Part shown: positions 1 to 57,857 of the stretch, piece by piece | How positions within the stretch are numbered: position 1 is the stretch's first letter | Layout: every line of letters starts with the position of its first letter | NCBI GenBank assembly: GCA_019828565.1 | Contig: JAHDYR010000012.1 | Location: 248,001 to 312,000, forward strand | Direction of reading: 5' to 3' | Length of the DNA stretch: 64,000 bases | Origin: Carpediemonas membranifera BICM | Taxonomy: Eukaryota; Protista; Fornicata | Position numbers and translations under genes: made by a program | The notes under the pieces: generated by a model | The model's input: the letters and a program-made list of their open reading frames with translations, nothing else | Databases searched by the model: none | Told to the model about the DNA's origin: nothing

Positions 1-455
1 CGAGCAGACAATGGGCTGAACTAGGAGTGCGCCTGTGTCTCACTCCAGTCTTGATCCGCGGCATTGGTGCTCACCGTCGCGCCTTGCTCGAAAATACCGT
101 ATTTCGGTTTTCCCGCAACATTCAAGGCATCGCCATCATCAATCGCATCATAGGGTCCGGAGCAGCCGAGCGGCATTCGTGCTGGAAAGATATGCAGTCA
201 TCACCACACAATCAACCGTGACAAATGATGTCTAAATCTACTTCTTATCTGTATACGCATCCAACAGCGCTATTCCGGGGTTCTCTCCTTTTTATATCAT
301 TCTAACTGCTTAGAAAGCTCCAATGCTGTTGACAGAGACGTCAACCATCTGAACAGAGGAAGTAGAAGCGACCGCGTCGCAGCTGTAGGTTTCATAGGTG
401 TCCTTGCACCCGCCATTGTTGTTGCCCATGACTTTTCGGACAGAAATTGCTTTGC

Positions 456-599
456 TGTGCTGCGCAGGATTAGAATTGTTGAGTCCAAAACACACAGTGA
501 TCCAAGCAGCATCAGGATCGCAGTGTGGTTCATCATACTCCATCAATCGTGCGCTGCATATCACGCGCGCTGCAGCGCGTGCTTGCTCAACTTAGCAAG
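456..599 (-). ncRNA. Putative omegaRNA scaffold between nuclease stop and element end
   Basis: Three hairpins: CACAC/GTGTG with GATCC/GGATC (491-527), GCGCTGCA/TGCAGCGC (551-578) and CTTGCT/AGCAAG (582-599). The position matches known TnpB/Fanzor omegaRNAs. Expression is not shown. Confidence 0.6.
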
Positions 600-1478
600 T
601 TAATGATAGCGAGGAAGAGCACCTCTCTGGGAGTCGTAGTGGAAAGGAGATTGCTCTATCTGATCTGAAGTTGCATCGAAGGTGCACCAAAGGATGTTCT
701 CGCTGGCGCTCTTATCTCGGTGAGAGAGATTGAGAAGTATGTCTCTCTGCTCGGGATGCCGACGTAGCCGTTCAACGCGCCATGGAGCTCCCTCGCACGC
801 GGGATTCTGGCAGAGCATGGTGCGGTGTGTGTGCACCACACGTCTGAAGTGTGCTTTGCAGTGTGGGCACACGATGGAAGTGCGGAATTCGGAGACCATG
901 TTGACACTCACGACGACGTTGTGCCGGAGCATTATGCCAGGAAGTGCTCGAGCAAAGTGGCGGTACGGAGCACAGGAGGGAGTGCCGGCGGAACCGAACA
1001 GTGCAGCCCCATACGCGACTTCGAGGTGAATGGGCTCCGGGGGGCGCCCGCCGAGATCATCCAGGAGTTGACGTCCAGCCCGAGCGAAGTGCTTCTGGCG
1101 CAGACGGTGATTGGCAAAAGTCGCACGGCGGAAACACTTTCTCATCCCCTCGTTGATGATCTGAACGATGTTCTTCTTCTCATGGACAAACCTAATCGAC
1201 TGTTTGAGAGCCTCTAGACTTGTCGTTTTGAACGATGCTGCGCTCATATTCACGCGGAAAGAGGGGGTGGCAGTGTAGCCACACTTAGCGAGTACGCCAG
1301 ATACACTCTGCCCGTCTGGGCGGCGGATCGTGTAGCCGCCCAGCGACCGAGCACCAGGGTCGAAGCCCATGAGAGCTTGAATGTCCGGGGCAGGAGTAGC
1401 CTCAGCGTCATCCTGACCGAGCCCGCTTGTTATTGCTACCCTTTTTGTACGTGGGCCGGTCAGCCACCCGACCGCCAC
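600..1478 (-). CDS. Minimal Fanzor1/TnpB-like RuvC + zinc-finger nuclease (start uncertain; first ATG at 1370)
   Basis: RuvC-I GFDPG, VAYG strand, rearranged catalytic Glu in VSEFRTS, CPHC...CQNPAC zinc finger and RuvC-III HRDKSASENIL. Confidence 0.88.
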   Translation of the reverse strand: MAVGWLTGPRTKRVAITSGLGQDDAEATPAPDIQALMGFDPGARSLGGYTIRRPDGQSVSGVLAKCGYTATPSFRVNMSAASFKTTSLEALKQSIRFVHEKKNIVQIINEGMRKCFRRATFANHRLRQKHFARAGRQLLDDLGGRPPEPIHLEVAYGAALFGSAGTPSCAPYRHFARALPGIMLRHNVVVSVNMVSEFRTSIVCPHCKAHFRRVVHTHRTMLCQNPACEGAPWRVERLRRHPEQRDILLNLSHRDKSASENILWCTFDATSDQIEQSPFHYDSQRGALPRYH

Positions 1479-1931
1479 GGTATTTCTCGCGACCCACCCA
1501 AACCGTCACGTTACGTTAATCTCGCCAATGGCCTTGTTAACGGAAGCCTTCACCGTGTATATCTTGGAAGGCGGAGTCTATTGAGCTGCCTGCATCGATC
1601 ATTTCTTTTCAGGGTTCATCAGCTAGCAGCATCCCTCAAAACACAAGAAACCAGCATCATACAGCACAAAGCGTCTTTACTACTAGTTACAACCGCTTTC
1701 CACCACTAGTGTCTCTCACAACAGACGAAGATGACGAAGACGACGACGACATGAGCTTCAGACGCCGGCAATGGACGACAGATGAGCGCGTAACAGACGA
1801 GCACAGACGCGAAAGAAGACCGCAGCGTTCGACACAGACGATGGACGACGCATCTTTTCGTGCAGACCGACGACTGAAAGCACGAAAGCCCGATGGTACA
1901 GACGAGGGCTGAAGTGGGTGAGTGGAGGTAG

Positions 1932-2056
1932 TGTGCCGCGCAGGATTAGAATTGTTGAGTCTAAATCCTCTGGAGTTCATCCCAGGGGGGTCGACAGCCC
2001 AAGTCACCTTTACATGAATCCTCCACATAAACCCCATAAACCCTCTAAATACCACA
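1932..2056. repeat. Terminal TG...CA unit (LTR-like) of family A copy 1
   Basis: Starts TGTGCCGCGCAGGATTAGAATTGTTGAGTC (repeat of 456-485, 1 mismatch) and ends TACCACA. Preceded by purine tract GAAGTGGGTGAGTGGAGGTAG (1911-1931). Confidence 0.8.
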
Positions 2057-2145
2057 TTTGCATTTCCCTTAAAGTGCACCGAATCAGTTTTCTGGGAGAC
2101 ACGATAGAGCAGACGCTGTTAGAGAGTACAATGGAAGCTATTTAC

Positions 2146-5497: not shown

Positions 5498-5638
5498 GTC
5501 GATTATGTGACCTTAAAATGCGCATCGTCAATTTGAAGTCTGCTGTTGACGATTGAGAGTCCTACTTTACTGCTTGCACTGTGCACTCAATGATACTTCA
5601 CAATTCCTCGATTTTACAGCCCATCCGACAGCCTAGTG

Positions 5639-19555: not shown

Positions 19556-19642
19556 GTGATCGTGTTGCGCAGTATAAACACATTTTTCGAACCTCCCAGA
19601 CAGGGCCTGAAAGGAACGATCAAAGTGCCAAACTGTACAACA

Positions 19643-20572
19643 TCATCCGTCCGTAGACGAATGTTGGCGGTTAGCCAATTGATGATACTGGAATGATGTT
19701 TGAAGACGTGGGATCGATGTGCGACTGAACGGAGAGCCACTGAGCTCATCTTCCGTGGCAAGAGAACGCCACAGGATGTTCTCTGCAGCACTCTTGTCCC
19801 GATGATCAACATTCAGAGCATCAGGAACTGTTGCGCGCCACTGAGCACCACGGCACTGTGGATTTTCGCTGAGCATCACACGATGTGGGTGAACGTGCTG
19901 GTCATCACGCGGACGAACTCGCTTGTAGGGGGCGTGGCAGTGAGGGCAGACGACGGTGGTGCGGTCCTCGTTAACCATGTTAAGATCGACGACAGTGTTA
20001 TACCCCTTGAGAAGGGGTACTACCTCTCTCGCGAACTTTCGATATGGCGCGCAAGGAATGAACATACCAGCAGGCGTGGTGAATCTTGAGCTCCCGTAGA
20101 ACACTTTCAGGCGAATGGGGGTGGCGATGGGATGGTGGCGACGCCAACCGAACTCCCGAGCCAACTGTTGGCCGCAGCGGGCGAAGTGCTTCTGGCGAAG
20201 GATGTGGTTCGCAAAGCGCACTCGGCGGAAAGACTTACGCATTCCAGCCTCGAAAATGTCGTTCGCGTTGTCCAGCACAAACCTAATAGAGTTGTTGATA
20301 CTCACTAGTCTTGTGCTCTTGAACGACGCGGCCGTCATATCAAAGCCGAAACTTGGCGTCTTAGTGTATCCGCACTTTGGAAGGACGCCGGAGCTGGTGG
20401 TGCCATCGGGGTGCCTGATGTAATACCCTCCGATGGACCTCGCGCCCGGGTCGAACCCCATGAGGTGGGCATCAGGATCCGGCGCGGGCGGAGCCTCGGC
20501 ATTATTTTCTCCGAGTCGCGGGCGCTCTTTTCTTCTTTTCTCCCGCCCTTTCGCTCGCTTTCGAACAGGCAT
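19643..20572 (-). CDS. Minimal Fanzor1/TnpB-like nuclease, intact ORF (309 aa) with basic NLS-like N-terminus
   Basis: MPVRKRAKGREKRRK; GFDPG, VFYG, VNEDRTT, CPHC and HRDKSAAENIL. Clear diverged homologue of 600-1478. Confidence 0.88.
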   Translation of the reverse strand: MPVRKRAKGREKRRKERPRLGENNAEAPPAPDPDAHLMGFDPGARSIGGYYIRHPDGTTSSGVLPKCGYTKTPSFGFDMTAASFKSTRLVSINNSIRFVLDNANDIFEAGMRKSFRRVRFANHILRQKHFARCGQQLAREFGWRRHHPIATPIRLKVFYGSSRFTTPAGMFIPCAPYRKFAREVVPLLKGYNTVVDLNMVNEDRTTVVCPHCHAPYKRVRPRDDQHVHPHRVMLSENPQCRGAQWRATVPDALNVDHRDKSAAENILWRSLATEDELSGSPFSRTSIPRLQTSFQYHQLANRQHSSTDG

Positions 20573-20637
20573 GCTCGCATCGACGTTAGACGATCTCCCT
20601 ACCGACTTAAGACGTGAGTAGGAGGGAGACAGGGCAG

Positions 20638-20680
20638 TGTTGCGCAGTATAAACACATAATTCGACCCTTCAATAGCACA
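20638..20680. repeat. 43-bp TG...CA terminal unit of family B
   Basis: TGTTGCGCAGTATAAACACATAATTCGACCCTTCAATAGCACA. First 21 bp identical to 19563-19583; solo copy at 57815-57857. Confidence 0.85.
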
Positions 20681-20772
20681 GATCGGCTTCGCCTAAACTG
20701 CTCAACATACATAAACCACCATAAATCCGTAGCCAGAGGCCTACCACCCATAGTACACACAACAAGACTTAT

Positions 20773-21774
20773 TTACAGAGACGCCGACATCGACCCCTCG
20801 TCGGACTCGTCCCGCCTGTTCGTCGTCAGATGGACGCCGTCGCACACAAACGTCATGTCCGCCAACCCCGGGTTCATCGCCGCATCGATTGCCGACCGGA
20901 GTCCCGACAGCCGGAACGGCTTCCGGACGACCCCCTTGGCGCCCTCCTTGAGGACGAAGCGGACGTCCTCGTCGTCGCAATAGGCGCTCACAATGACGAC
21001 GCGGATGTTCGGATGGTCCTGCTTGAGCCGGATAAAGGCATCCTTGCCGTCCAGCCGGGGCATGCGCATGTCGAGGAGGACGAGGTCGTGTACGTTAGCC
21101 CGATACGTCTCCACTGCCGCCAGCCCGTCGTGGGCCTGGTTGATGACCTTGTGGCCCATGTTGGTCAGCATGCGGGTGAGGGTCGACCTCACCATCGGGT
21201 CGTCATCCACCACCATGACACGCACGGACCCGCTGTTCCCCTCCACCGACAGCTTCTCCTGGGTCGTGTCCGTCGTGGCGGCCTTCTTCATGCCAAGGTC
21301 ATCACCCACGGCGGGGAGAACTGGGGAGAGCGCGGGCTCGGACAGCGAGGCGCCCGTGTCTGGGCGGAGTATACTGGGCGTGGCCGACGTGGATGGCATG
21401 TCCTCGAGGTCCGACACGCGGACCGCGACGTGGCCCTGGAGCTCCTCAGACCCGTTCAGACTCATGCGACGGAGCGGCGATGGGCAGGGGCTGGGCGTGT
21501 GGGGACGCGCCCTGTGCCGTGCGGTGCGGAGAGTGGCGTTCGCCCGGGCCATTTGGTGAGCAATGTCGGAAACAAGGAAGCCGGATGCCTCCAGACGCGC
21601 GATCGCTTGGAGTGTGGCGGCATTGAGGGGTTCTACGTCATGTATGTGAGTATCCACGCTGAATCGTGCTGAAAGAGGGCGTATATGCTCCATGGCGGGG
21701 TTGTGCGTGTCATGCATCATGACAAGTGCGTCACTGTAATGTAAGTTTGGCTGTAAGGGCAAGGATAGCTTCAC
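20773..21774 (-). CDS. Response-regulator receiver (CheY-like) domain protein (start may be ~21720)
   Basis: VMVVDDD, DLVLLDMRMPRLDG (phospho-acceptor Asp), IVSA and KPF. Confidence 0.88.
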   Translation of the reverse strand: MKLSLPLQPNLHYSDALVMMHDTHNPAMEHIRPLSARFSVDTHIHDVEPLNAATLQAIARLEASGFLVSDIAHQMARANATLRTARHRARPHTPSPCPSPLRRMSLNGSEELQGHVAVRVSDLEDMPSTSATPSILRPDTGASLSEPALSPVLPAVGDDLGMKKAATTDTTQEKLSVEGNSGSVRVMVVDDDPMVRSTLTRMLTNMGHKVINQAHDGLAAVETYRANVHDLVLLDMRMPRLDGKDAFIRLKQDHPNIRVVIVSAYCDDEDVRFVLKEGAKGVVRKPFRLSGLRSAIDAAMNPGLADMTFVCDGVHLTTNRRDESDEGSMSASL

Positions 21775-24851: not shown

Positions 24852-25982
24852 TCAGAACGGCCGCCGGTGCATCGGGATCATCTCCGACACGATCGCCTGG
24901 GCAATCGGCCTTAAACTGCACAATTCTCTGCTACTGTTTGCGTTGAGAGCAATGCTGTAGCCTTCCTCAGGGCAGTAGACAGCCAGGGACTCGTAGCCCC
25001 GTGTCTGTCCGCAGTGGCCGTAGACGGGCTTGCCGCACATCCTGCCCGCGGAGAGGCCAGTGGCAAAGGTGCCGAGCCCGTTGCCCGCGGGCCCGATGCG
25101 GGGAGCGTCTGGGATCTGCTCCATCTCGTAGAAGAGGTGGCGATCGAAGAAGCGGTCGGTCGTCGCCATCTCCCGCACCCAGAGCGCCATGGTCGTGGCC
25201 GAGGCGACCCCCGCCCCCGTGGCCCAAGCGAGGCTGTCTCTCTGGCTGAACCTGGGCTTGACCCTTGTGGGGCCCGTGACGGCGGTCTCATCGATGCCCC
25301 CGATGAGTCTGGGGTCGACCTCGGCGCCGTTATCGAGGAAAGAGACGAACTTGGGGTTGATGATCCGCTCAGAGACGAGGTACTCGCGGTAGGTCTTGCC
25401 CGAGATGGCCTCGACGATTAGCGCGAGTAATAAGAAGTTCGTGGCGGAGTATGCGACGCCTGCGAAGGCCGGGAAGCGCTGCTTCTTCGACAGTAGCCTT
25501 TTGACCACATGACGGGCGTTCCACTTGTGCGAGGGAGCCATCTCGGACAGCAGCGTTACCAGGGGATGGGTCAGGACGTCCGTCAGGCCCGACTGATGCG
25601 TGAGGAGGCTCTCGATGGTAATATCCCGCGGGAGGTTGGGGAACCAGCGATCGACTGTGCTGTGGAGGCTGAGTTGGTTCTTGGTGATGAGGCGCATGAT
25701 GGCCGCGGTGACGAAAAGCGACGATGACGTGCCTAGGCGGAATGTGGTGTCAATTGTAATGGGAAAGGTTCTCGGGCTGTTTTTCTTCTTCTCTTTCACA
25801 GTTGTTCGTGCATATCCACTGGCAAACGAGAAAACTTCGCCGTCAGGGCATACTAAACAGGCTTGCAAGCATTCATCTGAGTAAGAAGCGCAAAGTTGGA
25901 ACAAACAGCCTTGTGTTGTTTGTAATTCGTATATAATGTCGCGAAACCGAACGCGTTCGGCGATGCCGCGGCGTTCTGCCAT
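24852..25982 (-). CDS. Serine beta-lactamase/AmpC-like fold protein with degenerate active site
   Basis: TTFRLG, ITIESLLTHQSGL, YSATNF and YGHCG; the SxxK motif is replaced by TSSS. Confidence 0.8.
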   Translation of the reverse strand: MAERRGIAERVRFRDIIYELQTTQGCLFQLCASYSDECLQACLVCPDGEVFSFASGYARTTVKEKKKNSPRTFPITIDTTFRLGTSSSLFVTAAIMRLITKNQLSLHSTVDRWFPNLPRDITIESLLTHQSGLTDVLTHPLVTLLSEMAPSHKWNARHVVKRLLSKKQRFPAFAGVAYSATNFLLLALIVEAISGKTYREYLVSERIINPKFVSFLDNGAEVDPRLIGGIDETAVTGPTRVKPRFSQRDSLAWATGAGVASATTMALWVREMATTDRFFDRHLFYEMEQIPDAPRIGPAGNGLGTFATGLSAGRMCGKPVYGHCGQTRGYESLAVYCPEEGYSIALNANSSRELCSLRPIAQAIVSEMIPMHRRPF

Positions 25983-31982: not shown

Positions 31983-32141
31983 GATTTTTTAGTTTTTGGT
32001 CGTTTTGTCGTGATTTGAAGTATCATAGAGTGCACAGTGCAAGCAGTAAAGTAGGACTCTTGTTGTATCGAGACCTCGTGGTTGTTTATAGCAGTTTAGC
32101 CGCCGCGTCGTGGCAGCGATGCCCTTCCATCTCGGAACGTC

Positions 32142-33764: not shown

Positions 33765-33920
33765 CGATCATCAAGTCGTCGGTCAGTCGAGCAGTCGGCT
33801 GACCAGATACGACAAGCGCACCATGACCATGGAACGGGCATGTTGGCCGGAGAAGCCGTAGCTGCGCCTGTAGCCCCCATGCCCACCGGACGACCGCAGC
33901 GCAGTTTTGCACCATTGAAT

Positions 33921-34245
33921 TGTGGTATTTAGAGGTTTTATGTGGAGGATTCATGTAAAGGTGACTTAAGCTGTCGACCCCCCTGGGATGAACTCCAGAG
34001 GACTGAACAGGTTCAGTCTGACGGCCCACCTGTCGTACACCAGAAGGGTAGCGGACATGAGGGCGTCGGCGATGGTAAGAGCGACGGTTCTGGGCGGGAT
34101 CTTGGTTCTCGCTCCAGCAGAAACTAGGAATGCGGCAGCTTTGGACGCGCACATTGGGATGTTGGAGCCATCCGGCCGCGGATTGATCACAGTTGGTTTG
34201 ACGCGGAAGTGTTTAGACTCAACAATTCTAATCCTGCGCGGCACA
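33921..34245. repeat. Terminal TG...CA unit of family A copy 2 (325 bp, includes extra 177-bp segment 34035-34211)
   Basis: Aligns to 1932-2056 and 44558-44680 on both sides of the extra segment. Confidence 0.8.
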
Positions 34246-34660
34246 CTACCTCCACTCACCCACTTCAGCCCTCGTCTGTACCATCGGGCTTTCGTGCTTT
34301 CAGTCGTCGGTCGGCACGAAAAGATGCGTCGTCCATCGTCTGTGTAGAACGCTGCTGTCTTCTTTCGCGTCTGTGCTCGTCTGTTACGCGCTCATCTGTC
34401 GTCCATTGCCGGCGTCTGAAGCTCATGTCGTCGTCGTCTTCGTCATCTTCGTCTGTTGTGAGAGACACTAGTGGTGGAAAGCGGTTGTAACTAGTAGTAA
34501 AGACGCTTTGTGCTGTATGATGCTGGTTTCTTGTGTTTTGAGGGATGCTGATGAACCCTGAAAAGAAATGATCGATGCAGGCAGCTCAATAGACTCCGCC
34601 TTCCAAGATATACACGGTGAAGGCTTCCGTTAACAAGGCCATTGGCGAGATTAACGTAAC

Positions 34661-35574
34661 GTGACGGTTTGGGTGGGTCGCGAGAAATACCGTGGCGGTC
34701 GGGTGGCTGACCGGCCCACGTACAAAAAGGGTAGCAATAACAAGCGGGCTCGGCTCGGTCAGGATGACGCCGAGGCTACTCCTGCCCCGGACATTCAAGC
34801 TCTCATGGGCTTCGACCCTGGTGCTCGGTCGCTGGGCGGCTACACGATCCGCCGCCCAGACGGGCAGAGTGTATCTGGCGTACTCGCTAAGTGTGGCTAC
34901 ACTGCCACCCCCTCTTTCCGCGTGAATATGAGCGCAGCATCGTTCAAAACGACAAGACTAGAGGCTCTCAAACAGTCGATTAGGTTTGTCCATGAGAAGA
35001 AGAACATCGTTCAGATCATCAACGAGGGGATGAGAAAGTGTTTCCGCCGTGCGACTTTTGCCAATCACCGTCTGCGCCAGAAGCACTTCGCTCGGGCTGG
35101 ACGTCAACTCCTGGATGATCTCGGCGGGCGCCCCCGGAGCCCATTCACCTCGAAGTCGCGTATGGGGCTGCACTGTTCGGTTCCGCCGGCACTCCCTCCT
35201 GTGCTCCGTACCGCAACTTTGCTCGAGCACTTCCTGGCATAATGCTCCGGCACAACGTCGTCGTGAGTGTCAACATGGTCTCCGAATTCCGCACTTCCAT
35301 CGTATGCCCATACTGCAAAGCACACTTCAGACGTGTGGTGCACACACACCGCACCATGCTCTGCCAGAATCCCGCGTGCGAGGGAGCTCCATGGCGCGTT
35401 GAACGGCTACGTCGGCATCCCGAGCAGAGTGACATACTTCTCAATCTCTCTCACCGAGATAAGAGCGCCAGCGAGAACATCCTTTGGTGCACCTTCGATG
35501 CAACTTCAGATCAGATAGAGCAATCTCCTTTCCACTACGACTCCCAGAGAGGTGCTCTTCCTCGCTATCATTAA
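34661..35574 (+). pseudogene. Fanzor-like nuclease, frameshifted
   Basis: Same protein as 600-1478, but C5 at 35131-35135 versus C6 in copy 1 splits the ORF (real mutation or homopolymer sequencing error). Confidence 0.8.
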
Positions 35575-35718
35575 CTTGCTAAGTTGAGCAAGCACGCGCT
35601 GCAGCGCGCGTGATATGCAGCGCACGATTGATGGAGTATGATGAACCACACTGCGATCCTGATGCTGCTTGGATCACTGTGTGTTTTGGACTCAACAATT
35701 CTAATCCTGCGCGGCACA
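35575..35718 (+). ncRNA. Putative omegaRNA scaffold (copy 2)
   Basis: Reverse complement of 456-599 with the same three hairpins. Confidence 0.6.
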
Positions 35719-35721
35719 TGA

Positions 35722-37041
35722 ATGTCTGCTGGGAACCTTTGGGTCCTAGCCGCCGTTATTGTGTGTGTAGCAGCAGGAGACGTTCCCATCATACGACCTC
35801 CATGTACAAAACTGCTCATCCCCAACGACACCGTCACTGAGCTCCAGGAAAAGTGCTTTGGAGCCGCACTTCAGTTCACCGACGACTATTTGATAGTGGG
35901 GTCATGCTCAGAGGCGATTCACGTGTTCAGTAACGCAGGAACAGTCTACCTCTTTCCGCTGGACGATCTTTCCAGCCCGATCACCGTCAGGCCGCCCTTC
36001 CCAGCCTCCAACGCCGCCTTTGGAGACGTAATTGCCGCCACGAACGACTTCCTCTTCGTCAAGGACAACAGCCTCCCGAACGCTGCCGTCAGTGTCTTCG
36101 TTTTCACTCTGCCCGATGTCCGACACACCCAGACGCTCAGTCCTACGAACCAAAGCGCCACAAGCATTGCCGCGTCTATAGAAGCTTGCGGCGACCTCCT
36201 CATTATCGGCGTCCCAAACACGCGGCAGGACGCCTTCACCCTCGGCGCGGCCTTCCTCTTCCGTCTCGACCCCGAGACCCAGAGATGGAAGTTCTCACAA
36301 CGGGTTCGGGGCAACGCCGAGAACGAGCTGTTTGGCATGAAGGTAGTTATCGGCAATGACTGCGCTACCTTCTTCGCTGCCCGGTTCAGGGACACCACCC
36401 GCCGCCTGACGATCCACGTCTTCGACCTCGACCCCGCCCTGGGCCTATTTATCCACACAGACACCCTTCCCACCAACTTCGTGGACATGGCCGCCCTGGG
36501 TCCCGCCCTGGTCATGTCCGAGTGCCCAGACCGCATCGCACTGATGTACCAGATCACACGGGAGTCTGGGCGGTGGGCCATCGCTCACTCCGTCCCTCCG
36601 CCCGCTAGCGTCATCCAGGACTCCTTCGCCAGTGCGTTGGCCATCGGGGTCGGCCCCACGGTGTACTTCAGTGCCGGGTCGACCGAGATCCTCCGACTCC
36701 GGGGTGGGTCATGGGCCGCACTCAAGTCTGGCATGACCCAGCCCGGGGAACAGATGGGCGTGGCAATCGCTGCCCACGGCCATCTCGTAGCGGTGTCCAG
36801 CGCCACCAACGACGGGCACAGCGCAGTGTACCTCTTCGCTGAGCGGGCCGACCATGGTCTGGTCTCCCGCCTGGTGCTCTGGGCGATCGGGCACAAGGCC
36901 TGGGCCGCTCTGTGGCTGTTCGTCGGGCTGACGGTGTGCGCTGCATACACCGCGGCGTCCATCGTGTTCGCAGGCAGCGGGACAGCGTTGCTATGGGCGT
37001 TCTCCTGGAAAGGCCGGCCGACGGACTACGACTATTTGTAG
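35722..37041 (+). CDS. Surface protein with FG-GAP-like beta-propeller repeats and C-terminal TM helix
   Basis: Signal peptide, repeated FG...(LIVG)...GxVY/F units and hydrophobic C-terminus. Confidence 0.75.
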   Translation: MSAGNLWVLAAVIVCVAAGDVPIIRPPCTKLLIPNDTVTELQEKCFGAALQFTDDYLIVGSCSEAIHVFSNAGTVYLFPLDDLSSPITVRPPFPASNAAFGDVIAATNDFLFVKDNSLPNAAVSVFVFTLPDVRHTQTLSPTNQSATSIAASIEACGDLLIIGVPNTRQDAFTLGAAFLFRLDPETQRWKFSQRVRGNAENELFGMKVVIGNDCATFFAARFRDTTRRLTIHVFDLDPALGLFIHTDTLPTNFVDMAALGPALVMSECPDRIALMYQITRESGRWAIAHSVPPPASVIQDSFASALAIGVGPTVYFSAGSTEILRLRGGSWAALKSGMTQPGEQMGVAIAAHGHLVAVSSATNDGHSAVYLFAERADHGLVSRLVLWAIGHKAWAALWLFVGLTVCAAYTAASIVFAGSGTALLWAFSWKGRPTDYDYL

Positions 37042-44557: not shown

Positions 44558-44702
44558 TGTGCCGCGCAGGATTAGAATTGTTGAGTCTAAAATGACAGGT
44601 GGGCAGTCAGGCTGAACCTGTTTAGTCCCCTGGAGTTCATCCCGGGGGGTTGACAGCCTAAGCCTTCTTCACATGAACCCCCAGTAAACTGTAAGGTAAA
44701 CA
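44558..44702 (-). mobile_element. Solo terminal unit of family A (non-coding, diverged; distal boundary uncertain)
   Basis: Exact TGTGCCGCGCAGGATTAGAATTGTTGAGTCTAAA, then a diverged match to 33945-34034. No TSD found. Confidence 0.8.
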
Positions 44703-44737: not shown

Positions 44738-47113
44738 CTACCACAGGGGGACCTGACGATCGTACTGCAGCTCACTGACAGCAGTGGGCTCCCTGCCTGG
44801 CCTGAGCCTGACCCTCGCGTTGGCCGCGACCTCGCTGATGAAACCATGCCGCAGGGCATAAATGATAGCAAGCATCCGAACCGGCGGAGACAGGGCCTTG
44901 AGCTTATTGCAGAGTCCTGGCATGGCCTTGAGGAGCTGAGGCACGGTCCACTGGCCGTCGTTGCCCCGCACTGCCCTGTAGAGGCTGGTCTGGATGCCAA
45001 GGTGGGTGTCGGGGGGTATCGACCGCAAATCCGACTTCTCCCGCTTGCAGTTGTCACACTTACCACACTGGAAGTGTCTGTCATGTCCAAAGTGCCGCAG
45101 CATCATCTCATTCCTGCAGCACACGGTGTCCGCCATGAACCAAAGCGTCTCATACAGGTGCTGCCGCTTGCCGTCGTCCATGCTGTGCGCGGCGTTGAGC
45201 ACCATCTCCGGTATCGCCTTACTCTTCCATCTGAACAAGCTGATGCACTCCGCAGTTTTGCCGTCCCGTCCAGCTCGGCCGGCCGCCTGGTAGTAGCCTG
45301 CCACGCTTAGTGCCATGCCAACGTGGATGACGAAGCGGACGTCTGGACGATCGATGCCCATGCCGAACGCCGTCGTGGCGCACACAACCTTGATCCGCCC
45401 ACCAGACCACTCCCCCTGAACTCGGTCACGCTCAGCGGCCTCGAGCCCGGCGTGATACGGCAGCGCGTGTATGCCGACCGCGGCTAGTGAGTCGGCGGCC
45501 TTCGTGGTCTCATTCTTACTCATGCAGTAAATTATTCCGCACATGCCCCTGAACCTCAGCTGCACCATGCGGGCAGCCTGCTGGTGCACCGCCATGGCGC
45601 TGCTAGTCTCCGCAGGGACGACTGAGAACACCAAGTTGTCTCTGTACAAAGGGCCCTCGATGTCAGTGAAGTCCGGCCGAAGTTGGAGGATGTCGATCAC
45701 CTGCTGCTTCGTCCGGGGGGCGGCTGTGGCGGTGAGGGCGGTGATGGGGACGTCTGGGTACGACTGACGCAGCTTGGCGAGCTCGATGTAATCCTGTCTG
45801 AAGTCGTGGCCCCAGTTGGACACGCAGTGGGCCTCGTCGATGACAAAACGGTCGAGGAGGCCATCCTTGTGCAGCTGCTCGAATATTTGGATCAATCTCC
45901 GAGATTGCACGATCTTTTCTGGCGTTACATAGCACACCTTGTACGGTACCGCCCCGTCGGCACCGGGCAGCAGGTCTGTCGGATGATGGGTCGGCCTGGG
46001 GCCTGAGAAATGGACCGCCGGGATCCCCCAGGCCGCTAGATGGGCGACCTGGTCGATTATGAGTGATATCAGCGGGGACACAACGACAGTGAGGCCGGGT
46101 GCGATGACCGCGGGGAGTTGGTACGTCAGGGACTTGCCCGAGCCGGTGGGGAGGATAACAAAGACGTCCTTGCCCGCGACCGCTGCCCAGACAGCCTCCT
46201 TCTGGTATGGTCTGAACGCAGCCATGGCGAACCTGCTGCGGAGGGTGGTGTGGATCCGCTCCACGACGCTGTCATCGAGCATGGGGGCAGTCGCACGGCC
46301 AAACGGCCTGGCTGGCGTGTGCGAGGCGTCCTTGGTCGCCGTCCACGGCCCTACCCTCGCGGCCCCGTGATCCCTCCTGTTCCCTTGAACCGGTGCCATG
46401 TCATCCAGGGTGATTTCCTCGATCGGGTCGACGTCCTCCTGCGTCGAGGCGTCCTCTATGGGCTCGGGACTTGGGGCACGGTGGCCGTACGTCGGCAGGG
46501 GCCTGGGTGGGTTGGTAAAGCCGCTGCTGCTGGCGGGCCCGAGCGGCAGGCTGGCTTGGGCCCTGATCAGATCCTCGAGGGCGTCGGGGAGGGCGATCGA
46601 GACGGCATGGGATACAGAGCACGGTGAAAGGAAGGCCCCTACACTCCTGCTGACAGCCTTCCCCCTCCCGCTGCCCGGCGTGCCCCTCGTAGGGTCGGGG
46701 GAGGGTGGTGCGGACAGCATCTCGACGTCGGACAGCTGCTCCTCGGCAAGGGCGGGGCTCATGTCCTTCGCCGCTGTCCTGCGCTGCGTCTGCGTCTTGG
46801 CCAGCACTGCGGATGGCTGCGTGACGGGCGCTTGGTGCGTTGGGAGGGATGCCGGGCGGATGAAGTCCTCGAGCGCCTCAATCGCCCGCATACGGCGCGA
46901 TTCCTGCGGCCCTATGAGGTTCTTAATGCCGTAGAGCTCAGACAGTGCCCTTTCCAGGACCGAAGTGGCTGCAGGGGCCGGTTCAAGCGACTCTTGGTCG
47001 CTATCATCGTCCAGGTCATAACAATCCACCTCCTCCTCAAGCTTCATACGCTTGATAGGAGTATCAAAGCCGTCGTCGATGTCGAAAACCTCGGCATCGA
47101 AACTATCATTCAT
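44738..47113 (-). CDS. RecQ family DNA helicase (BLM/Sgs1-like)
   Basis: PTGSGKSLTYQLP, DEAHCVSNWGHDFR, AFGMGIDRPDVRFVIH and RQC zinc ligands CR...CGKCDNC. Confidence 0.93.
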   Translation of the reverse strand: MNDSFDAEVFDIDDGFDTPIKRMKLEEEVDCYDLDDDSDQESLEPAPAATSVLERALSELYGIKNLIGPQESRRMRAIEALEDFIRPASLPTHQAPVTQPSAVLAKTQTQRRTAAKDMSPALAEEQLSDVEMLSAPPSPDPTRGTPGSGRGKAVSRSVGAFLSPCSVSHAVSIALPDALEDLIRAQASLPLGPASSSGFTNPPRPLPTYGHRAPSPEPIEDASTQEDVDPIEEITLDDMAPVQGNRRDHGAARVGPWTATKDASHTPARPFGRATAPMLDDSVVERIHTTLRSRFAMAAFRPYQKEAVWAAVAGKDVFVILPTGSGKSLTYQLPAVIAPGLTVVVSPLISLIIDQVAHLAAWGIPAVHFSGPRPTHHPTDLLPGADGAVPYKVCYVTPEKIVQSRRLIQIFEQLHKDGLLDRFVIDEAHCVSNWGHDFRQDYIELAKLRQSYPDVPITALTATAAPRTKQQVIDILQLRPDFTDIEGPLYRDNLVFSVVPAETSSAMAVHQQAARMVQLRFRGMCGIIYCMSKNETTKAADSLAAVGIHALPYHAGLEAAERDRVQGEWSGGRIKVVCATTAFGMGIDRPDVRFVIHVGMALSVAGYYQAAGRAGRDGKTAECISLFRWKSKAIPEMVLNAAHSMDDGKRQHLYETLWFMADTVCCRNEMMLRHFGHDRHFQCGKCDNCKREKSDLRSIPPDTHLGIQTSLYRAVRGNDGQWTVPQLLKAMPGLCNKLKALSPPVRMLAIIYALRHGFISEVAANARVRLRPGREPTAVSELQYDRQVPLW

Positions 47114-53324: not shown

Positions 53325-53873
53325 TTAGATCAGGAGGGCGACAAGGGCGACAATCAGCGCAATGCTGACGGACCACATCCGGGCGTCCGACAAGATGATG
53401 GTGCTCTCATACGTGGCCGATGATGCGCCGCATGCGAAGAGCTGAAGAGTGACTTCGCGCTCGGAGGAGCCAATGGCCTCGACGTTTGAGAGGAAGATGT
53501 CGATGAGGTCGCTGGCCGTGTATGGGATGCTGATCATGTCCATCACGCCCTGGATGCCGTCGACGGGGAGTGTCAGGTTGAGGGGATAGATGGCTTCGGT
53601 GGCATCAAGGAACTCGTCAACATCAAAGCAGTTGCCCCGCTCCGTACGGGCAGCGGAGAGCGTAGTATCCTGCAGGAGGTCCTTGAAGCGGTCGTTAGAG
53701 AAGGTAGCGACGACCTCGATGGAGGAGCCCGCCACAAAGGTGGCCAAAGGCCATTTGAGCTCGGTAACCTGGTTGATCAGCACCTTGTCGCCTGTAACCG
53801 GGGCAGTGAAGTCGGTACAGGATGCAAATGTGGCCAGTACAGCGATAGAGAAGAAGAGAGGGATGAAGCCCAT
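53325..53873 (-). CDS. Small secreted/surface protein with C-terminal hydrophobic (GPI-like) anchor
   Basis: Signal peptide MGFIPLFFSIAVLA and terminal WSVSIALIVALVALLI. Confidence 0.65.
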   Translation of the reverse strand: MGFIPLFFSIAVLATFASCTDFTAPVTGDKVLINQVTELKWPLATFVAGSSIEVVATFSNDRFKDLLQDTTLSAARTERGNCFDVDEFLDATEAIYPLNLTLPVDGIQGVMDMISIPYTASDLIDIFLSNVEAIGSSEREVTLQLFACGASSATYESTIILSDARMWSVSIALIVALVALLI

Positions 53874-54634
53874 CGGCGAATTTCGGCTTTCGTTGTTGTG
53901 CCAAAAATGGCCGGCAGTCACAATCGCGACAGCCGAGCAGACCGGGGCCGTGCGGCGTCCTCGAGACTCGCTGGCGCCCGGTGGCCGCCTCATTTCCCGC
54001 AAACGAGGCCCCACGACACGCCGCAGTTTAATATAAGTCGCCACTAGGCGCGGTCGTCCTCAGCCAGGGCCTTGAGCATCTCCAGCTCGCTATGCGGGGC
54101 CGTCTTCAGCACTTGCGCTCGGTGCAAGCGGGCCCGCCTCACCAGGTGCCACACGGCGATGCCGCTCATGAGCACGCACAGCGACGCCGCGATGAGGTCC
54201 CCAATGGGGCTGGCTGCGATGACCGCCTCTGGCGTGCCGATGGTGAGCCCCAGGACGACCATGAGCGGGGTGCCGACGAGCACGTGCCGGGTCAGCATGA
54301 CGATCATGCCCAGGGGCGACAGCTTGATGGCCATGAAGACCAGCGTCACCGGGCTCTGGAAGCCGACAACGAAGAAGGCCAGGCAGTAGATCCGGGCGAA
54401 CGTGGTCCCGATGGCGATTGTGTGCGGGTCGTCCGTGAAGATCCGGAGATACAGGCGGGGAAACAGCAGGACAATCACCCAGGCCGCCAGGCCGAGCGCG
54501 ATGCCGGTCAGCACGGAGAACGCGATCGTCTGGCTGAGCCGCTTGTACCGATGCGAGCCGTAGCAGTACCCAGCGAGGGGCAGCGCCCCTTGCCCCACCG
54601 CCATCAGCGGCACGAAGAGCAGCAGGTAGCTCCG
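53844..54634. repeat. Inverted duplication arm 1 (791 bp; partner 55929-56719)
   Basis: Reverse complement of 55929-56719; one mismatch seen (54573/55990). Confidence 0.92.
54044..54634 (-). pseudogene. 5'-truncated duplicate of MATE transporter
   Basis: Encodes the last ~195 aa of 54768-56519 with one V>A change. Confidence 0.85.
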
Positions 54635-54767: not shown

Positions 54768-56519
54768 ATGTATGGGAATAGCGACCCATTGAGCGGTGAA
54801 AGTGACAGTAGCTCTCATCAGCATCAATCTGACGATGATTTTAACTCCAGTAGTGATTCTGGCCTCTCAGGGGACATCGTTGACGCCATTCCTGTTCATA
54901 ACCCGGAACCCGACAGATGTAGCGATCATCATGCACATACGAGCGATTCATCCAGCTCATCCTCGCCAATGTACAGATCAGACGCCGACGAGAACGACGA
55001 GGACGATGATGCGGCAGCCTTGCCACAGTATCCGGCCGCCAGCGGCAGCAATGAGGCAGAAGACCCGCCCAAGCACGCTCACGCCTTCATGGCGACGCGC
55101 CCCATCCCCCTCTTGTTCATGCAGTTTAGCGTCCCCGTGGGGTTCGGCCTGCTCGTCAGTATGGCGTATTCTATCGCCGACATGGCGCTAGTGGGCCACG
55201 CCTCGACCGGCGGTGACATGGCGATGGCAGCCATCGGCCTCTTCTACCCGCTCGAGAGCATGGCGGCGGGCATCGGCACGGGCCTCGGGACCGGCCTCAA
55301 CGCGGGGCTGTCACAGGCCCTCGGGGAGCAGGACTACCCGAAGGCGTGTCGGACGATCGGCAACGCCATACTGATGGCTCTGGCGATATTCATCACATAC
55401 CCGGCAGCGCTCTTCTTCCTGCTGCCCCGGTTCTTAATGATCAGCGGGGCAAACGACGACATCATGGCCCACGCCCTGCCGTACGGCCGGATCCTGCTGG
55501 CATGCGCCTTCGCACAGGGCATCTTCATCATGACCAACAACCTCCTTCGGGCAGACGGCAAGCCCAACGTCGCGATGGCCAGCATGACTGCCTCTGCGGC
55601 CATCAACATCACCCTCGACGTTGTCCTGATCTTCGGCTTCGGCCTGGGAACCACGGGTTGTGCCATTGCAACAGTGATCGGCCAAGGGCTGCCTTCAGCT
55701 ATAATCCTGGCCTACTTTACGTTTTTCAGCAAGACCGGTGTAAGAATCCGGCTATCGTCCTTCAAGCCCGACCTGCGTCTCATGTGGCATATCTTCCTTG
55801 TCGGCATCAGCCTCTTTGTCCAGCGCATCGGGCAGTCCATCAAGCTGTTCGTCATGAATGTCATGTTTGAACGAATCATATCCAGCGATGAGATCGGATA
55901 CTATCTTGCTGCAAACCAGAGTGTATCGCGGAGCTACCTGCTGCTCTTCGTGCCGCTGATGGCGGTGGGGCAAGGGGCGCTGCCCCTCGTTGGGTACTGC
56001 TACGGCTCGCATCGGTACAAGCGGCTCAGCCAGACGATCGCGTTCTCCGTGCTGACCGGCATCGCGCTCGGCCTGGCGGCCTGGGTGATTGTCCTGCTGT
56101 TTCCCCGCCTGTATCTCCGGATCTTCACGGACGACCCGCACACAATCGCCATCGGGACCACGTTCGCCCGGATCTACTGCCTGGCCTTCTTCGTTGTCGG
56201 CTTCCAGAGCCCGGTGACGCTGGTCTTCATGGCCATCAAGCTGTCGCCCCTGGGCATGATCGTCATGCTGACCCGGCACGTGCTCGTCGGCACCCCGCTC
56301 ATGGTCGTCCTGGGGCTCACCATCGGCACGCCAGAGGCGGTCATCGCAGCCAGCCCCATTGGGGACCTCATCGCGGCGTCGCTGTGCGTGCTCATGAGCG
56401 GCATCGCCGTGTGGCACCTGGTGAGGCGGGCCCGCTTGCACCGAGCGCAAGTGCTGAAGACGGCCCCGCATAGCGAGCTGGAGATGCTCAAGGCCCTGGC
56501 TGAGGACGACCGCGCCTAG
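54768..56519 (+). CDS. MATE family efflux transporter (MepA/NorM-like)
   Basis: YSIADMALVG, LRADG, INITLDVVLIFGFGLGTTGCAIAT and ~12 TM helices. Confidence 0.92.
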   Translation: MYGNSDPLSGESDSSSHQHQSDDDFNSSSDSGLSGDIVDAIPVHNPEPDRCSDHHAHTSDSSSSSSPMYRSDADENDEDDDAAALPQYPAASGSNEAEDPPKHAHAFMATRPIPLLFMQFSVPVGFGLLVSMAYSIADMALVGHASTGGDMAMAAIGLFYPLESMAAGIGTGLGTGLNAGLSQALGEQDYPKACRTIGNAILMALAIFITYPAALFFLLPRFLMISGANDDIMAHALPYGRILLACAFAQGIFIMTNNLLRADGKPNVAMASMTASAAINITLDVVLIFGFGLGTTGCAIATVIGQGLPSAIILAYFTFFSKTGVRIRLSSFKPDLRLMWHIFLVGISLFVQRIGQSIKLFVMNVMFERIISSDEIGYYLAANQSVSRSYLLLFVPLMAVGQGALPLVGYCYGSHRYKRLSQTIAFSVLTGIALGLAAWVIVLLFPRLYLRIFTDDPHTIAIGTTFARIYCLAFFVVGFQSPVTLVFMAIKLSPLGMIVMLTRHVLVGTPLMVVLGLTIGTPEAVIAASPIGDLIAASLCVLMSGIAVWHLVRRARLHRAQVLKTAPHSELEMLKALAEDDRA

Positions 56520-56719
56520 TGGCGACTTATATTAAACTGCGGCGTGTCGTGGGGCCTCGTTTGCGGGAAATGAGGCGGCCACCGGGCGCCAGCGAGTCTC
56601 GAGGACGCCGCACGGCCCCGGTCTGCTCGGCTGTCGCGATTGTGACTGCCGGCCATTTTTGGCACAACAACGAAAGCCGAAATTCGCCGATGGGCTTCAT
56701 CCCTCTCTTCTTCTCTATC
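55929..56719. repeat. Inverted duplication arm 2
   Basis: See arm 1. Confidence 0.92.
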
Positions 56720-56795
56720 TCCGTTGTACTGGCCCCGCATCCAAACATCTACTTCCAGGCCTCGCCTATTTACATTGTACCCTTTGATTATACGC

Positions 56796-57814: not shown

Positions 57815-57857
57815 TGTGCTATTGAAGGGTCAAACAATGTGTTTATACTGCGCAACA
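57815..57857 (+). mobile_element. Solo 43-bp terminal unit of family B
   Basis: TGTGCTATTGAAGGGTCAAACAATGTGTTTATACTGCGCAACA is the reverse complement of 20638-20680 with 3 mismatches. Flanks GGAAG/CAAAG do not form a perfect TSD. Confidence 0.85.

Follow-up and report, generated by a model that had tools for sequence, protein, structure and literature searches.

How does a eukaryotic mobile element move when it carries a Fanzor-like nuclease and has neither terminal inverted repeats (TIRs) nor a transposase of its own, and what fixes the place where it lands? The question is raised by a 64,000-nucleotide stretch of gene-dense eukaryotic DNA from the free-living protist Carpediemonas membranifera BICM (GenBank assembly GCA_019828565.1, contig JAHDYR010000012.1, positions 248,001 to 312,000 of the forward strand), hereafter the window. 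It holds three such elements: E1 (456-2056) and E2 (33921-35718), which belong to family 1, and E3 (19563-20680), which belongs to family 2. Evidence from beyond the window comes from gene models (128 stored proteins, labelled in the style of P0001) and from contigs of public runs; these contigs resemble cDNA, and their depth is not taken as copy number or expression. Our results suggest, with a probability of about 0.5, that the elements are internally deleted, non-autonomous DNA transposons moved in trans by an integrase-type (DDE) enzyme that is aimed by a motif-binding protein. The original prediction, made from the sequence alone, had offered either a miniature retroelement or an asymmetric-end DNA element mobilised in trans. 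The second alternative is our best reading, at the same even odds, and the description of non-autonomous elements with asymmetric, TIR-less ends is judged right.

Each element is flanked by an exact 5-bp duplication and by none longer. The duplicated bases are TTTGC for E1 (451..455 and 2057..2061, +), TGAAT for E2 (33916..33920 on the tip side and 35719..35723, the latter overlapping the ATG of a 439-aa host open reading frame (ORF); +) and GATCG for E3 (19558..19562, near the ATG of an emp24 gene, and 20681..20685; +). The left tips of E2 and E3 lie 3 bp and 7 bp, respectively, from host start codons. Contigs of other copies end at the same places (33921, 35718, 20638 and 20680/20681) among the loose ends listed, which are 15 of 36 and 24 of 44 in two contig comparisons, and none of these contigs covers 20695-20800. 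Given the exact duplications and the matching contig ends, the predicted boundaries, TG...CA tips and 5-bp duplications hold for all three elements. The statement that no inverted repeat exceeds 4 bp was also borne out: the exact terminal inverted match is 4 bp in E1, 4 bp in E2 and 3 bp in E3, with 5-7 of the first 12 bases alike. The TIRs that characterise Ginger2 and IS481EU are absent from the elements. Their TG...CA tips with a 4-5 bp duplication are of the Ginger2/IS481EU type, and direct TG...CA repeats with a 4-6 bp duplication are equally a feature of retrotransposons with long terminal repeats (LTRs) and of terminal-repeat retrotransposons in miniature (TRIMs).

Two other placements of the family-2 ends were considered and ruled out. 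The right end of E3 might have lain past 20680, where the following bases are common to E3 and the lone unit at 57857; it is kept at 20680 because contigs stop at 20680/1 and the common bases belong to a flanking motif that also follows the family-1 tips. A left tip two bases further out is ruled out by a contig starting at 20638 and by gene model P0023. At 19562-19567, contigs of the emp24 gene end at most 3 bases inside the left tip of E3, with adapter-like letters next in two of four runs, a weak sign that this tip may supply the start of the host emp24 transcript. One adapter-like loose end at 20674, in one run among the loose ends listed, is a weak hint that a transcript may begin a few bases inward of the right tip.

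The terminal units are complete at both ends of both families. Each is 40-43 bp long, reads TGT...ACA and lies in direct orientation. Of the layout in the original prediction, the nuclease and the purine tract stood; the left repeat is not a short piece but a complete unit that closes with ACA. The same plan in two families with different sequences is likewise judged to have been seen correctly. In family 2, the left unit of E3 (19563..19602, +) has 40 bp and the uninterrupted right unit (20638..20680, +) has 43 bp. In family 1, the left unit has 41 bp (456..496, +, in E1; 35678-35718 in E2), and the right unit consists of 34 bp that end in the hexamer TCTAAA, an insert, a second TCTAAA and a 7-bp tip. 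The first 34 bp lie at 1932..1965 (+) in E1 and 34212..34245 (-) in E2, and the second TCTAAA with the tip at 2044..2056 (+) and 33921..33933 (-). With the insert removed, the family-1 right unit has 41 bp, matches the left unit at 36-37 of 41 positions (36/41 in E1) and aligns end to end with the 43-bp family-2 unit with a score of 35, which none of 2000 shuffles reaches; the last nine bases of the two right units agree at eight.

A purine-rich tract precedes the right unit, at 1912..1931 (+; 16/20 purines) in E1, where it is a pyrimidine-rich leader on the nuclease strand, and at 20618..20637 (+; 17/20) in E3. Among all 20-mers of the window, 3.5% reach 15 purines and 0.4% reach 17. Two units stand alone: a 43-bp family-2 unit at 57815..57857 (-), without a 5-bp duplication (3/5 match), and the first 34 bp of a family-1 unit, to which is attached part of the retrotransposon-like gene described below, in a version that belongs to a second subfamily (44558..44702, +), also without a 5-bp duplication and with an uncertain right end (44702 or 44745). 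At 44738-44745, a RecQ gene has its stop codon within a stretch where 7 bp match the family-1 tip; this is either coincidence or the true end of the lone unit, which would then provide the RecQ stop. The unit core (T/C)GCGCAG (460-470, 19563-19572) resembles the Dada-U6 target CTTGCGCAG quoted in PMC8869645, probably by chance.

The two units of an element differ in ways that are inherited. Four left/right differences are common to E1 and E2, which are separate insertions, and three of them fall within seven bases of a tip; in family 2 the left and right units differ by six bases and one gap. Other copies, in contigs and gene models, show the same left and right unit types among the matches listed. 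When an LTR element replicates, each outer tip is made anew on the template of the opposite repeat's inner end. Thus, the standard LTR route cannot account, in either orientation, for differences that are kept at a tip, and in neither family have the repeats been made identical at each insertion. The shared differences rather indicate that the ends were carried over unchanged.

The family-1 right unit is not the plain TG...CA repeat that had been supposed: within it lies a coding fragment, which is a second gene's 3' end. In E1 the insert (1966..2043, +) contains the last codons and the 3' tail of a retrotransposon-like gene; in E2 (33934..34211, -) it contains 81 C-terminal codons (stop 33966-33968) and the 3' tail, 96% alike to the end of P0040. 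Six of six substitutions that separate E2 from the lone copy at 44558, over 19 codons, are synonymous in one frame, and the insert is thus the 3' end of a gene read toward the tip. Among the matches listed, its cut points fall at 34002 (E1), 34211 (E2), ~34034 (lone copy), 34022 and 34100; all five are joined to the last base of the 34-bp part, while P0040 and one contig run longer. Junctions in P0028, P0095, P0100 and P0127 were left out of the count as possible predicted introns. Splicing as the source of the varied cut points was not accepted, since AG precedes only two of four readable points and one junction, in a contig, has an extra base. A fixed 3' end, varied 5' truncation and one target site are the marks of a non-LTR retrotransposon, with one chimera joined elsewhere.

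The insert gene is seen over its last 125-130 residues, the longest record being 316 aa. P0040, a longer piece located one locus tag from a Fanzor model (P0044), carries an AD...ID(V)T...K motif, which may be that of the restriction-like endonuclease of R2/CRE-group retrotransposons. Atlas feature matches reach 0.91 to unnamed eukaryote clusters, and the structure rows, with template modelling (TM) scores of 0.40-0.59, all below the bar for naming, include clusters with RVT_1 (58%), zf-RVT (31%) and PD-(D/E)XK nucleases. The insert is likely the 3' end of a site-specific non-LTR retrotransposon that lands in the family-1 right unit, because a fixed 3' end, a varied 5' end and a short duplication are typical of site-specific elements. 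The targets of such elements include transposons (PMC4640811). The R2, Utopia and CRE groups also combine a fixed 3' end and varied 5' ends with insertion into a repeat, and presumably share the D...D..K-type motif; the insert differs from them in that it has no sequence relative outside the species and no reverse transcriptase (RT) was seen with the residues available. That the insert is the element's own lost transposase would be a less simple explanation than insertion into the unit. The coiled-coil host gene model P0082 ends in a 48%-alike copy of the insert C-terminus, which could be another insert subfamily, either fused or mis-joined to the host gene.

Insertion appears to be fixed relative to a short host motif. 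AAA(C/G)TGC starts 15 bp beyond the right tip of E1 (TTAAAGTGC, 2069..2077, +), 14 bp beyond that of E2 (AAACTGC, 33901..33907, -), 15 bp beyond that of E3 (CTAAACTGC, 20693..20701, +) and 13 bp past the tip of the lone unit at 57815; in every case it lies on the outward strand. One contig flank has the motif 14 bp beyond the tip (by eye), and a second lacks it, with 5/8 letters in register. The motif is therefore found at 13-15 bp in five of six right-tip flanks, the lone copy at 44558 being left out for its uncertain right end, and in none of five left flanks. At the same offset, 25 of 21,370 non-coding point/direction pairs in the window (0.12%) carry it; as the pattern was drawn from these same flanks, the comparison is not a held-out test. 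Outside the elements, TAAA(C/G)TGC occurs 16 times in the window versus 2.0 times in shuffles and is an over-represented host motif. Its enrichment outside ORFs is not significant (5/12, p 0.05; 6/22 for a wider pattern, p 0.2), so we do not claim a promoter role for it.

We then propose a model for the movement of these elements. Each unit starts with TGT and ends with ACA, and the outer tips are flanked by the 5-bp duplication; a Ginger2/IS481-like enzyme would join both outer CA ends to target DNA cut with a 5-bp stagger. The constant spacing of 13-15 bp between right tip and motif would likely arise from tethering of the enzyme to a host protein on the motif, and such tethering may place several copies next to gene starts in this gene-dense genome. 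The RNA between stop codon and left tip is predicted to act as the omegaRNA, with the flank as guide, so that intact copies elsewhere could cut the empty site and restore the element. Repair of the breaks made by Fanzor may account for the abundance of deleted and chimeric copies. Separately, a non-LTR retrotransposon that encodes a restriction-like endonuclease would insert at one site of the family-1 right unit, duplicate TCTAAA and leave 5'-truncated copies. We give this model even odds mainly because the duplication is constant, the tips are conserved, the left/right differences are inherited and the left ends are exact although the insert is heavily truncated. The left tip is exact in all three window elements and in two further contigs, while the coding insert is shortened in nearly every copy seen; it is improbable that a single enzyme does both. 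Duplications of 4-5 bp are made by Ginger2, IS481EU has TGT...ACA ends (PMC10045372), and according to a 2026 review (PMC13565253, in the part available), Fanzor-bearing eukaryotic transposons besides Helitron, Crypton and IS607EU use DDE enzymes.

Several observations weigh against this model. A Pfam scan (E<=1e-5) of 37 likely-gene ORFs among the 110 in the window gave no transposase, RT or integrase family, as the original prediction had stated for the window. The elements lack TIRs, unlike Ginger2 and IS481EU. The 5-bp duplication is found at neither of the two lone units, where a simple DDE insertion or a deletion between repeats would keep it. An insert-free family-1 right unit occurs at none of the three right ends in the window and in none of the contig rows listed, and the lone copy at 44558 lacks the second TCTAAA. 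In the genomic chimera P0110, which lacks the right unit's first 34 bp, the insert is joined at 34122 to a family-2 fragment. No search with the insert protein, whether against Pfam, against the PDB or by fold, gave a match that would confirm the endonuclease label, the protein model having a predicted local distance difference test score (pLDDT) of 30. The purine tract adjoins the right unit in both families, like the polypurine tract of LTR elements and TRIMs. Finally, no fixed bases that could act as a target-adjacent motif (TAM) adjoin the insertion point.

The duplication-less lone units, the missing insert-free right unit and the missing transposase favour another explanation, in which the non-LTR retrotransposon is itself the engine. 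Its own 3' end would be the right tip; it would nick DNA at a fixed distance from the motif, copy its RNA for a variable length and, where the 34-bp repeat ends, jump to the Fanzor module. Family 2 would be a passenger sharing only the tip, and the elements would count as retroelements that bear Fanzor. All family-1 right ends seen do carry an insert, each with a cut point of its own, and the lone units keep the tip-to-motif spacing without a duplication. Between E1 and E2 the insert part differs more (3/69) than the Fanzor module (10/1502), as if the two had been assembled separately, although the numbers are small; the lone copy at 44558 has a 34-bp repeat identical to that of E1 and E2, together with a 3' part that is ~85% alike. 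The extra base at one junction would fit as well, and TRE5-A offers a precedent for position-fixed targeting by a non-LTR element in a gene-dense protist (PMC5391098). Yet the left tips are exact after 1.1-1.8 kb in all three elements, TGT...ACA is conserved on all four unit copies, and the RNA would run antisense to Fanzor. Moreover, insertion into the unit is the simpler explanation for the second TCTAAA and for the match of the insert-free unit, over its whole length, to the left unit and to family 2, and an HMMER search of 1.84 billion proteins with the insert protein gave three matches, all from C. membranifera and none with an RT. We consider this engine doubtful. The broader claim that these are the first Fanzor-bearing retroelements, built by a non-LTR retrotransposon with motif-fixed landing whose template jumping at the 34-bp repeat adds the nuclease cassette on the 5' side, is only slightly less so and remains tentative; all versions of a route through RNA, taken together, form a serious minority possibility.

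One such version, the original retroelement reading, would make the elements TRIM-like, with LTRs of ~41 bp, moved by the RT and integrase of an LTR retrotransposon. The two direct TG...CA units, the 5-bp duplication, the purine tract before the right unit in both families and the existence of lone units all suit it. The reading nevertheless fails to explain the left/right differences inherited at the tip, no TGG-type primer site follows either unit in either orientation (by eye, without comparison to the host tRNA set), although priming of another kind may occur, and the lone units lack the duplication that solo LTRs keep. Units of ~41 bp are far shorter than known LTRs and much shorter than the repeats of TRIMs and other non-autonomous LTR elements. 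We regard it as unlikely. A single-strand or recombinase route, of the Replitron/Helitron2 type with an HUH enzyme or Crypton-like, with the duplication made by a secondary cut, perhaps by Fanzor, is very unlikely in our judgement. Replitrons have short direct terminal repeats and orientation-specific insertion (PMC10288648), the species encodes a geminivirus-like Rep and helitron-related genes (PMC8516963), and Fanzor-bearing Helitron2 elements of Chlamydomonas have duplications (PMC3627910). Those duplications are, however, absent or variable and the ends fuzzy (PMC3627910, PMC10288648), whereas here the duplication is 5 bp in three of three elements with sharp tips, and the units form no DNA hairpin (four of four with z above 0). 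The balance of this evidence leaves DNA transposition in trans as the preferred account.

The nuclease that the elements carry is a Fanzor1, as had been proposed, on the basis of a published motif pattern, an Atlas match and the top rows of a fold comparison. The pattern printed by Yoon and colleagues (bioRxiv 2023.08.09.552727) comprises DPG in RuvC-I, a glutamate six residues before CxxC, a second cysteine pair and RD...N in RuvC-III. E1, E3 and 32 of the 128 stored proteins show it, and among the 78 long reading frames of the window, the only two that do are those two genes. The 642-aa model P0047 has an Atlas feature score of 0.98, and its structure matches clusters of 600-800 aa with TM scores of 0.59-0.64 over 473-511 residues, mostly from giant viruses and some with PF07282. 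A Foldseek comparison of P0047 with the PDB, based on a poor model (pLDDT 38), has nothing but Cas12f and Fanzor1 in its top nine rows (E 0.009-0.11). The size and fold of a Fanzor1 (~600 aa or more, REC and WED domains and the TnpB-family fold) are those of P0047 and not those of the three window copies, which lack the N-terminal half. In the profile search suggested for the nuclease, Pfam, NCBIfam and PHROGs gave sub-threshold zinc-ribbon matches only. Sequence searches of the PDB with the nuclease were blank or gave E>0.1.

The three elements had been called full copies. Instead, all are incomplete, each without about 310-330 N-terminal codons. E1 and E2 lack residues ~29-340 (~312 codons) of P0047, and each has its own frameshift. 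In E1, a 256-aa part with RuvC and zinc finger that shows the pattern (600..1370, -) adjoins a remnant of the N-terminus (1371..1595, -), with the ~312 codons deleted near 1512 and 5 bp lost near 1416. The E2 remnant (34575..35574, +) has the same large deletion and a 1-bp loss near 35130. E3 retains a C-terminal part of 309 aa (19643..20572, -), in which one zinc-finger cysteine is a serine; its first residue corresponds to residue 237 of P0078, a 539-aa model whose own front end is incomplete. The internal deletion of E3, which removed the leader and the N-terminal half of Fanzor, has its junction at 20587..20588, with loose ends at 20588 in four of four runs, and P0039 reads across it. Three of the 128 stored models retain the N-terminal strand and all three acidic motifs. 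The truncation of all three nucleases, the second-gene 3' end in the family-1 unit and the fixed motif spacing had escaped the original prediction. A third Fanzor family has no copy in the window, and chimeras join its N-terminal half to the family-1 nuclease domain (P0011, P0019, P0070, P0015, P0026). The 532-aa Fanzor model P0016 is publicly named 'cytosine deaminase', a wrong label.

The stretch from the stop codon to the left tip, in the same position as in other Fanzors, is predicted by folding to be the omegaRNA scaffold. It lies at 456..599 (-) in E1 (z -2.07; 9/200 shuffles as good), at 35575..35718 (+) in E2, where it ends in the left unit (z -2.42; 1/200), and at 19563..19642 (-) in E3, where its 80 nt form one long hairpin closed by the left tip (z -6.13; 0/200). 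Folding above the level of shuffles is strong in family 2 and modest in family 1; the left unit closes the stem, and adding 22 flank bases weakens the fold (z -1.0). The predicted scaffold has no Rfam match. A joint at 34387/35230 that skips 842 bases, found in three of four runs and the deepest among the joints listed, may represent a short Fanzor-less derivative that keeps the predicted scaffold, by analogy with the SpuFz1 'ghost' loci.

Relatives of the nuclease were found only in C. membranifera among the databases searched, as judged by sequence comparison. All 39 protein clusters matched by the E3 ORF and all 32 matched by a full-length profile are from this species; their member counts sum to ~140 gene models, one member being an unrelated 56-aa protein, and the three Fanzor families are ~45-50% alike. 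A protein search of viral and metagenome contigs gave no nuclease relatives, a search there with the terminal-unit pattern gave none, and the phages and plasmids searched held no relatives.

A Fanzor1 in a non-autonomous element is an already known kind. The Fanzor1 non-autonomous DNA transposons described by Bao and Jurka (2013, PMC3627910) and for SpuFz1 (PMC10432273) likewise have a single Fanzor1, a structured segment from stop codon to element end, a short duplication, no transposase of their own and many partial copies. Their ends are TIRs or those of Helitrons, unlike the direct 40-43 bp TGT...ACA units, 5-bp duplications and motif-linked sites found here. For the unclassified TIR-less MCi-2 and MCi-5, the accessible text of PMC3627910 gives duplications of 11-12 or 6 bp and describes no direct terminal units. 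The Fanzor2* element of Chloropicon primus (bioRxiv 2023.08.09.552727) is also non-autonomous, with a variable 5-nt duplication and no known partner; it has TIRs and a Fanzor2, and not a 640-aa Fanzor1. Ginger2/Tdd and IS481EU share TG...CA or TGT...ACA tips, Ginger2 makes the 4-5 bp duplication mentioned above, and IS481EU occurs in another metamonad group; they differ from the present elements in having TIRs and encoding a transposase, and PMC10045372, as far as available, reports no Fanzor in them. TRIMs and other non-autonomous LTR elements share the direct TG...CA repeats, purine tract and 5-bp duplication, and differ in the respects weighed above. Dada (PMC8869645) and TRE5-A of Dictyostelium (PMC5391098) also take fixed places relative to host signals and avoid genes; they target small-RNA genes, whereas the anchor here is a 7-9 bp motif near protein-coding genes.

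Jiang and colleagues, in the part of their work available, report long interspersed nuclear elements (LINEs) near Fanzor1c from a classifier run on 10-kb surroundings. A LINE nested in the element end, as here, would yield such an association, and the 2026 review (PMC13565253) states, in the accessible part, no evidence of a retrotransposon encoding Fanzor. We found no paper naming both 'Fanzor' and 'Carpediemonas', with subscription journals and Repbase outside the search; one scanned file excepted, Carpediemonas is absent from the searched supplements of two 2023 Fanzor surveys, and the text and supplements of the genome paper (PMC8516963) give no match to 'transpos', again with one scanned file excepted. 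Within a search that did not cover the bioRxiv supplements, which may list these proteins, no printed account was found of the direct mini-units, of the motif-linked insertion or of the nested site-specific insert.

No tRNA gene and no Rfam family was found in the window. It holds a response-regulator receiver gene (20773-21720) and a beta-lactamase-family gene (24852-25982), both identified by Pfam and, in a eukaryote, possibly of bacterial origin. A 45-bp sequence occurs twice in inverted orientation (5556-5600 and 32016-32060, 98% alike), each copy 30-35 bp upstream of the start codon of an unrelated gene, without a visible flank duplication or an Rfam match. An inverted duplication of 800 bp (53832-54634 and 55929-56734, 99% alike), which takes in a MatE transporter gene's 3' half together with the flank, is either recent or an assembly artefact.

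Together, these elements carry a Fanzor1 lineage for which the databases searched contain no close relative, and their host is a metamonad in which much of the standard replication machinery is missing (PMC8516963). Their end structure, with direct TGT...ACA mini-units, a 5-bp duplication and no TIR, fits none of the superfamilies compared, and their insertion is fixed in position and orientation next to a short host motif. Should the retroelement reading be true, an RNA-guided homing system would be spreading through an RNA intermediate. Handles by which this biology can be tested are the predicted scaffold of 80 nt, the gene models, of which at least three are full-length, and a targeting rule with possible further use in directed integration.

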